Source: a virus | Taxonomy: Duplodnaviria > Heunggongvirae > Uroviricota > Caudoviricetes | IMG/VR virus record: IMGVR_UViG_2671180755_000028 | Length of the DNA: 18,440 nucleotides | Reading direction: 5' to 3' (one strand) | In this document: positions 1 through 1,067 of the stretch, one piece after another | Position numbering within the stretch: the stretch's first letter is position 1 | Layout of the letters: each line of letters begins with the position of its first letter | Notes under the pieces: model-generated | Told to the model about the DNA's origin: nothing | Databases searched by the model: none | What the model saw: only the letters and a program-made list of their open reading frames with translations | Translations under genes and position numbers: made by a program

Positions 1-1067
1 TTATTTGATTTCAATTTTGTCCCACTCCCTGCCTCTGTCATCACGATACTGTGATGCCATGGTGTCCGACTTATGCCCGAGAAGATGTTGAGCAAACTTA
101 TCGCTTATCTGCTTCTCATAGAGTCTTGCAGACAAACTGCGCAACTCGTGAAAGGTAGGCGGATCCCCTTCGAAGGAAAGACCTGATGCTTTTCGTGCGC
201 GCATAAAATACCTTGATACTGTGCCGGATGAAAGCGGTTCACGACGAGTAGATGCAATTATGGTTTCTCCGCCAAGAATCTCTTTGCATTTATCAAGTGT
301 TTCCTTCATTGATATCCCGAGAGCATCAACATGCAATGTTGTAGGGATGGCAATTTTTACGCCTGTTTTGCTTTGTTCGACATAAAGATATCCATCTACG
401 ATATCAGACCACTTCATTTCGCATAAATCACCAACTCGCTGCCCGGTAACAACAGCCAGTTCCATTGCAAGTCTGAGCCAACATGGTGATGATTCTGCTG
501 CTTGATAAATTTTCAGGTATTCGTCAGCCGTAAGTCTTGATCTCCTTACCTCTGATTTTGCTGCGCGAGTGGCAGCGACCGGGTTTGTTGTTATATGGCC
601 TTCAGCTATTGCCTCTCGGAATGCATCGCTCAGTGTTGATCTGATTAACTTGGCTGACGCCGCCTTGCCCTCGTCTATGTATCCATTGAGCATTGCCGCA
701 ATTTCTTTTGTGGTGATGTCTTCAAGTGGAGCATCAGGCAGCCCCCTCCTTATTGCTTTAATTTTGCTCATGTAATTTATGAGTGTCTTCTGCTTGATTC
801 CTCTGCTGGCGAGGATTTTTTCGTAGCGATCAAGCCATGAATGTAACGTAACAGAATTATCACTGTTGATTCTCGCTGTCAGAGGCTTGTGTTTGTGTCC
901 TGAAAATAACTCAATATTGGCCTGTATTGCTTCAGTGATTGCTATCCTCCTGTCTCGGCCTAAACCAAACTCTTTACCCGTCCTTGGGTCCCTGTAGCAG
1001 TAATATTGTTTCTTATATAAAGGTTAGGGGGTAAATCCCGGCGCTCATGACTTCGCCTTCTTCCCAT
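1..1067 (-). pseudogene. int: Lambda-type tyrosine integrase Int, disrupted by a frameshift near 1004-1005
   Basis: The minus-strand ORF 1..771 matches the C-terminal 256 aa of lambda Int as recalled, ending ...YRDDRGREWDKIEIK. The same frame continues upstream to ...YYCYRDPRTGKEFGLGRD and hits a TAA at 1024-1026 with no Met. From the ATG at 1065-1067 a different frame encodes MGRRRSHERRDLPPNLYIRNN (the lambda Int N-terminus) and stops at 960-962. The two frames meet where lambda has NNGYY, so about 4 bp are missing. Confidence 0.8.

Follow-up and report, generated by a model that had tools for sequence, protein, structure and literature searches.

The DNA analysed here, hereafter the window, is a stretch of 18,440 nucleotides that begins in the integrase gene (int) of a lambda-like prophage. 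This gene lies on the minus strand, and window position 1 corresponds to the end of its stop codon (...EWDKIEIK*). The features identified in this first part of the window, which also includes xis and the promoter pI, are the following:

960–1067, minus strand: truncated 5′ frame of int, coding for Int residues 1–21, then 14 out-of-frame residues and a TAG at 960–962 (ORF list and translation; only residues 1–20 match the Pfam family Arm-DNA-bind_1)
1004–1007, minus strand: junction of a 4-bp deletion (ATGG, TGGA or GGAT on the int strand), with AT..AT microhomology in the flanks (alignment with lambda, 434 and 2B8; BLAST gap against SS52)
1–1023, minus strand: remaining int coding sequence, Int Y23 to K356, open in the -1 frame, with no ATG, GTG or TTG ahead of the ATG at 771 (ORF list and translation)
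1–771, minus strand: longest part of int still readable from a start codon (256 aa; Int residues 101–356), comprising part of the core-binding domain and the catalytic domain, without the arm-binding domain (ORF list and Pfam; Sakai pseudogene ECs_5702)
1045–1263, minus strand: intact xis, 72 aa, overlapping the start of int as in lambda (Pfam Exc, E = 3.9e-41)
1258–1289, minus strand: promoter pI, including a cII-binding site (TTGC-N6-TTGC); its sequence does not differ from the pI of phage 434 (compared with the annotation of OL657226.1)

When translated from the minus-strand ATG at 1067, int yields a frame of 35 codons, reading MGRRRSHERRDLPPNLYIRNN followed by ITATGTQGRVKSLV and a stop. 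The first of these segments is the same as residues 1–21 of lambda Int, and the second consists of the 14 out-of-frame residues that precede the TAG. A second minus-strand frame reads ...PLYKKQYYCYRDPRTGKEF... through to the Int C-terminus (...EWDKIEIK*), with no stop in between, and within it ...QYYCYRDPRTGKEF... (~1023 to 1) corresponds to Int Y23 to the C-terminus. The original prediction, made from the letters of the window, was that the int frame encodes 21 residues of Int and stops, that Int resumes in another frame, and that about 4 bp are missing. The translation bears out the first two points, and the alignment to lambda int that had been proposed as a check, extended to 434 and 2B8, makes the third exact: precisely 4 bp are absent from the window int relative to all three phages, in a single gap of four columns (AACA----ATATTAC, against AACAATGGATATTAC), and the nearby columns are otherwise unchanged. 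Which tetranucleotide is missing (ATGG, TGGA or GGAT) is ambiguous, because AT is present on either side. This gap is the sole difference between window 1–1300 and phage 2B8 (1300 against 1304 bases; 99.7%), and BLAST likewise reports it as the sole difference between SS52 and the window within int-xis. On these alignments, the deletion is best read as a specific lesion in an otherwise identical gene, and not as a chance feature.

The xis gene had also been predicted to be intact, and this is the case, with all 72 aa present and the Exc family recognized by Pfam (E of about 4e-41). The Xis protein (WP_001303849.1) is common to the annotations of Z1831, SS52, CB9615, 493/89 and TW14359. The int-xis region has 97.8% nucleotide identity to that of lambda (J02459), with which it shares both the overlap of xis with int and the cII-dependent pI. 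However, lambda is a fully functional phage with an intact int, and the int of the window is broken.

I then compared the entire window, site by site, with prophage Sp3 of Sakai and with the Stx2c prophage located at sbcB in strain Z1831. This comparison divides the window as follows:

1–4207: Sp3/CP-933K-type left arm, with the deletion-bearing int, xis, orf55, the gene for a putative membrane protein of 200 aa, a TraR-like gene and exo, plus the 3′ end of bet (100% identity with Sakai Sp3; Sp3 allele at 65 of 65 discriminating sites)
4208–4316: crossover interval within bet, where Sp3 and the Stx2c prophage share 109 identical bp (site comparison)
4317–14755: Stx2c early region, with bet, gam, kil, cIII, N, cI, cro, cII, O, a DnaB-type helicase gene and the nin genes (from 4208 onwards, zero mismatches to the Z1831 sbcB prophage)
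14756–16150: scaffold gaps (runs of N at 14756–14915 and 15795–15796), contigs placed out of order, and an ORF6N/ant repeat of 110 bp that has been collapsed (exact 28-bp overlaps at the contig ends)

The left arm is that of Sp3, with int carrying the deletion, xis, ECs_0802, ECs_0804 and ECs_0805–0809, and 0 mismatches to Sakai over 1–4207. The identity to the Sakai Sp3 int pseudogene (ECs_5702) and EDL933 CP-933K includes the deletion itself, and the flanking genes (xis, orf55, ECs_0804, the TraR-like gene and exo) are the same. Past the crossover interval, the Stx2c-phage allele is found at 6 of 6 discriminating sites in 4317–4611. The bet differences in this stretch, which is upstream of the crossover interval, are synonymous, and a look-up of the hybrid Bet protein returned 72,617 blocks, too common to inform. 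Over 4208–14755, 14916–15794 and 15797–16002, the window matches the Stx2c prophage of Z1831 (NZ_CP062711.1) with 100% identity, and 16041–18440 shows a single mismatch to it (99.96%); stx2c itself lies past the window end.

The hallmark of Sp3, a bet'-ninE fusion with loss of gam through ninB, is not found in the window. In Sakai Sp3, bet is cut at the window equivalent of position 4831 and joined to ninE, whereas the window has a full bet of 261 aa, followed by gam, kil, cIII, N, cI, cro, cII, O and the helicase gene, in a stretch identical to the Stx2c prophage; the N gene of this early region is N-like. Conversely, the Stx2c prophage at sbcB in Z1831 has a left arm of its own, with an IS-disrupted integrase and ead/Ea22 genes, which is missing from the window. 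I considered that the window might represent a less decayed Sp3 with its own early region, as in 493/89, and rejected this, as the ancestral Sp3 early region (CB9615, 493/89) is only 94–99% identical to the window and encodes lambda-type O/P genes, against 100% identity and a DnaB-type helicase for the Stx2c prophage. It is this difference in identity that assigns the right-hand part to Stx2c-phage DNA; on sequence identity, the early region right of 4208 is that of the Stx2c prophage normally found at sbcB, and not that of Sp3. The original prediction that the rest of the early region stays intact next to the int lesion is therefore not supported: in Sakai and Z1831, Sp3 has a truncated bet and has lost gam through ninB, and the early region seen in the window is that of the Stx2c prophage.

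The Cro protein of the window (WP_000067727.1; gene at ~9325–9540, plus strand) is common to the Stx2c prophage and to ancestral Sp3-like prophages (O55:H7, locus 25000–25215; 493/89, locus 18348–18563), and the DNA identity between the cI–cII segment (window 8554–10018) and the ancestral Sp3-like prophage is ~96%. The Stx2c phage and the ancestral Sp3-like phage may form one immunity group. In the left arm, ECs_0804 (WP_000120056.1), the 200-aa ORF at 1713–2315 (plus strand), is encoded on the opposite strand, between orf55 and the TraR/DksA-like gene. Its hydrophobic stretches suggest a membrane protein; it is kept in the att-lambda prophages of O55:H7, O157:H7 and O145:H28, has no Pfam family on record, and looks like a moron.

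The join between Sp3 and Stx2c DNA is likely a repeat-mediated misjoin, in a scaffold built from short reads with k=29. The two runs of N comprise 160 bases (14756–14915) and 2 bases (15795–15796), and all of the contig ends at these runs (3/3) recur elsewhere in the window as exact overlaps of 28 bp; this length being k-1, it is the pattern of a de Bruijn assembly with k=29. The 110-bp ORF6N/ant repeat, present twice in Z1831 (locus 22823–22932 and 23753–23862), is traversed only once, the 820-bp loop that separates the two copies having been assembled on the wrong side, and the ORF6N/Ant fusion ORF is a product of this misassembly. Since a 110-bp repeat has been collapsed in the same scaffold, the assembly mis-resolves repeats of ~110 bp. 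The switch from Sp3 to Stx2c sequence is located in one of only five identical runs of at least 109 bp, among the 71 intervals of the shared segment. It is a single clean switch without allele mosaic, which fits a real crossover as well as a misjoin. I infer the chimera from the assembled sequence. Separately, the ORF6N gene shows a 30-bp length difference between the window and Z1831.

The hybrid arrangement was also sought in other genomes. The whole window is found in one place in no complete E. coli genome, the best match running from 1468 to 18440 (86%) and lying at the Stx2c prophage. A 751-bp probe covering the junction (3900–4650) has a 100% identical match in no complete genome, the best being 99.6%; this junction survey covered complete genomes only. 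Among the 24 draft-assembly blocks read, out of 2753 containing the 256-aa residual Int ORF, none shows the hybrid context, and only the standard Sp3 and the IS-truncated Shigella arrangements are seen.

It is conceivable, if unlikely, that the hybrid is real, and that homologous recombination between the inverted exo-bet segments put a complete Stx2c early region next to the left arm of Sp3, with its dead int. The event may have been a ~1.8 Mb inversion, or a double crossover or gene conversion copying Stx2c-phage DNA into Sp3, and the int frameshift would then stand beside an intact early region. Recombination between prophages is well documented in O157:H7, where the Stx2c prophage is a frequent boundary or hotspot of large inversions, and large rearrangements bounded by this prophage are common in lineage Ic (PMC8743559). 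The one clean crossover in a 109-bp identical run agrees with such an event, as does the inverted orientation of the two prophages in Z1831 (Sp3 at 3.87 Mb, minus strand; Stx2c prophage at 2.03 Mb, plus strand), from which a genuine inversion would produce exactly the junction seen in the window. Nevertheless, the segment shared by Sp3 and the Stx2c prophage is only 2.3 kb long, with ~97% identity (71 differences), whereas the published rearrangements involve repeats of at least 5 kb and at least 98% identity, the largest spanning 1.4 Mb, against the ~1.8 Mb needed here (PMC8743559). The junction is in no complete genome, not even among the 124 in which 80% or more of the window is present, and those listed all match at the Stx2c prophage. 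It is, in addition, found in the same scaffold as the repeat-collapse error at the 110-bp repeat and the k=29 contig overlaps.

Should the junction be real, which I regard as rather improbable, it would put the Stx2c regulatory and replication region, presumably with stx2c downstream, on the int-dead Sp3 left arm at att-lambda, by means of a ~1.8 Mb inversion across the terminus or of a gene-conversion patch of at least 13 kb. Such an inversion would be larger than any in the 2021 survey, and the outcome would be a Shiga-toxin prophage that is inducible yet unable to excise, and whose att sites do not match. A misjoin in the draft is the preferred reading of the junction.

In a gapped draft scaffold with demonstrable errors elsewhere, the 4-bp deletion could itself be a sequencing or assembly artefact, int being intact in the organism, as the original prediction had allowed; an intact and otherwise identical int allele is indeed found in many O157:H7 strains. 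This explanation now retains very little probability. A 40-mer centred on the int junction (987–1026), which cannot seed on the intact allele, is present in 207 of 5426 complete E. coli genomes, in one copy each and always on the chromosome, including those of O157:H7 Sakai (in Sp3) and EDL933. These genomes were finished independently, several of them with PacBio (PMC8743559), the junction is not a homopolymer, and the left arm is otherwise 100% identical to that of the deletion-bearing strains. It is because the junction 40-mer occurs in 207 complete chromosomes that an error at this position is ruled out. Judged by this distribution, the allele with the 4-bp deletion is real and inherited, rather than a draft error.

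The feature at 960–1067 corresponds to the 5′ stub of int, a pseudogene in the O157:H7 lambda-like prophage known as Sp3 in Sakai and CP-933K in EDL933. O157:H7 Sakai, EDL933, Xuzhou21 and strain 9000, among many others, match window 1–1300 with 100% identity. The Sakai annotation at this site, which adjoins ybhC, reads "prophage Sp3, lambda-like phage; integrase; pseudogene" (ECs_5702), and the Z1831 copy of int is labelled "frameshifted" by PGAP. In O157:H7 the prophage occupies att-lambda, next to ybhC; attL and ybhC fall outside the window, which starts at the int stop codon, and in the complete genomes inspected the distance from int to ybhC is 134 bp. The int frameshift was thus already known, with an annotation in RefSeq and a published discussion and test from 2009. 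According to that study, Int "has been disrupted in Sp3, Sp11, and Sp12" (Asadulghani et al., 2009, PMC2669165), and the same study describes Sakai Sp3 as devoid of CI/Cro and O/P, with a disrupted Red system, predicts that its excision is lost, and reports negative results for its circularization, replication and packaging (Table 2). Sp11 and Sp12 are, like Sp3, prophages fixed by the loss of Int (PMC2669165), and Shaaban et al. (2016, PMC5359411) count SP3 as one of the "fixed" prophages that most strains retain.

In the intact 356-aa homologue, Pfam identifies Arm-DNA-bind_1 (PF09003) at residues 1–69 (profile positions 1–74), central/SAM-like domains, and Phage_integrase at residues 179–345. 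In the 35-aa product of the window int, no more than 20 of these 74 arm-binding profile positions remain. The 256-aa residual ORF has a clear Phage_integrase match (PF00589, E=8e-41), but it possesses no arm-DNA-binding domain according to Pfam, and is out of frame with the int start codon. A functional lambda-type integrase is a single ORF of ~356 aa, spanning the arm domain to the catalytic Tyr; here, the frame breaks after codon 21. In lambda Int, arm binding by the N-terminus is needed for both attP x attB and attL x attR recombination, and because of this requirement, no functional Int is expected from the window int.

The lesion is the loss of 4 bp between two AT dinucleotides, probably by replication slippage, that shifted the frame after Int codon 21. 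Translation ends 14 codons past the shift, and the arm-binding domain is never made. The catalytic part is left out of frame, its first start codon being that of Met101, and presumably no recombinase capable of arm-dependent integration or excision is produced. That int still functions, via programmed -1 ribosomal frameshifting or with truncated Int (residues 101–356) acting as a recombinase, is the least probable of the explanations considered, as its support (a fully open downstream frame, and a catalytic domain and a pI promoter that appear intact) is outweighed by the requirement for arm binding established for lambda Int, by the absence of an X XXY YYZ slippery heptamer in the 0 frame among all codons of the 35-codon ORF, of any ATG, GTG or TTG upstream of the ATG at 771 in the downstream frame, and of a Shine-Dalgarno-like GGAG just upstream of that ATG. 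Programmed frameshifting and internal initiation were rejected for want of the heptamer and of an earlier start codon. Furthermore, no circularization of Sp3 was seen in Sakai (PMC2669165), and the lack of further substitutions in int is explained by the youth of the lesion, and not by selection.

Comparing the att-lambda prophages of related strains gives the order in which Sp3 decayed. Their states are as follows:

O55:H7 CB9615: int intact, 356 aa (WP_000533643.1); early region complete, with bet frameshifted
O157 493/89: int intact, 356 aa; early region complete (bet, gam, kil, cIII, cI, cro, cII, O, P)
O157:H7 TW14359 and SS52: int intact; bet truncated and fused to ninE
O157:H7 Sakai and Z1831: int with the 4-bp deletion; bet truncated and fused to ninE

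All four states occupy the same ybhC site. The intact Int (WP_000533643.1), found in the att-lambda prophages of CB9615, 493/89, TW14359, EC4115 and SS52 and in phage 2B8, is encoded by the same gene at the same chromosomal site, but with ATGG present, and it spans the full 356 aa with the arm-binding domain that the window int lacks. Several O157:H7 and O55:H7 records match a query of the intact allele without gaps. The deletion is polymorphic in O157:H7: it is present in Sakai, EDL933, strain 9000 and the Z-series, and absent from TW14359, SS52, 493/89 and every O55:H7 genome seen, as well as from EC4115, SS17, 180-PT54 and 644-PT8, which carry the intact allele, as do others. In Sp3 of Sakai, Z1831, SS52 and TW14359, gam through ninB is absent, and with it N, cI, cro, cII, O and P. 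The bet'-ninE deletion junction is found in 295 complete genomes, against 207 with the int deletion.

Because TW14359 and SS52 combine the bet'-ninE deletion with an intact int, the int frameshift is the later event. From these sequences, the immunity and replication region is placed as the first loss, and the int frameshift as a subsequent one, on a branch inside O157:H7. The loss of Int is the last of several lesions, in an already dead prophage, and did not disable a healthy one; the locking of the prophage into the chromosome is therefore not attributable to Int alone. The original prediction had proposed that loss of full-length Int probably locks the prophage in. This stands in so far as int is dead and circularization of Sp3 is negative (PMC2669165), but falls short as to cause, given the earlier lesions.

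I also considered that the intact int of SS52 might be a polishing error, as this record contains an N and mixed alleles, and rejected this on account of the many independent O157:H7 and O55:H7 genomes in which int is intact. The finished SS52 record (NZ_CP010304.1) has an N and mixed or odd alleles at sites that discriminate Sp3 from the Stx2c prophage, at window equivalents 2799, 2985 and 4524. This suggests contamination of the consensus between paralogous prophages, or small gene-conversion tracts.

Other lesions affect the same integrase. Sp3 of Z1831 has an IS629/IS1203-type element (locus 12086–13299) in the int/xis overlap, at window equivalent ~1022–1029, which is absent from the window; this insertion is an additional lesion of later date, and an IS also lies in the int-xis region of a few more genomes. 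The att-lambda remnant of Shigella flexneri has the same 256-aa residual ORF adjoining ybhC, but a different lesion, with an IS cutting int at window equivalent 941. The IS insertion in Shigella is an independent killing of the same integrase at att-lambda. This residual ORF is at 10001–10771 in three of four such loci, one of them from Shigella flexneri 2a 301, and at 361–1131 in the fourth.

Taken as a whole, the most probable account is that a real, inherited Sp3 int pseudogene and a Stx2c early region have been brought together by the draft assembly. Drafts of genomes rich in lambdoid prophages can stitch two prophages into one, giving the false picture of a nearly intact prophage in which only int is broken, and this calls for caution when prophage completeness or domestication is scored from drafts. 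As for the 4-bp indel, its polymorphism in O157:H7 dates the last step of Sp3 decay, and it could serve as a simple marker of O157:H7 lineages.
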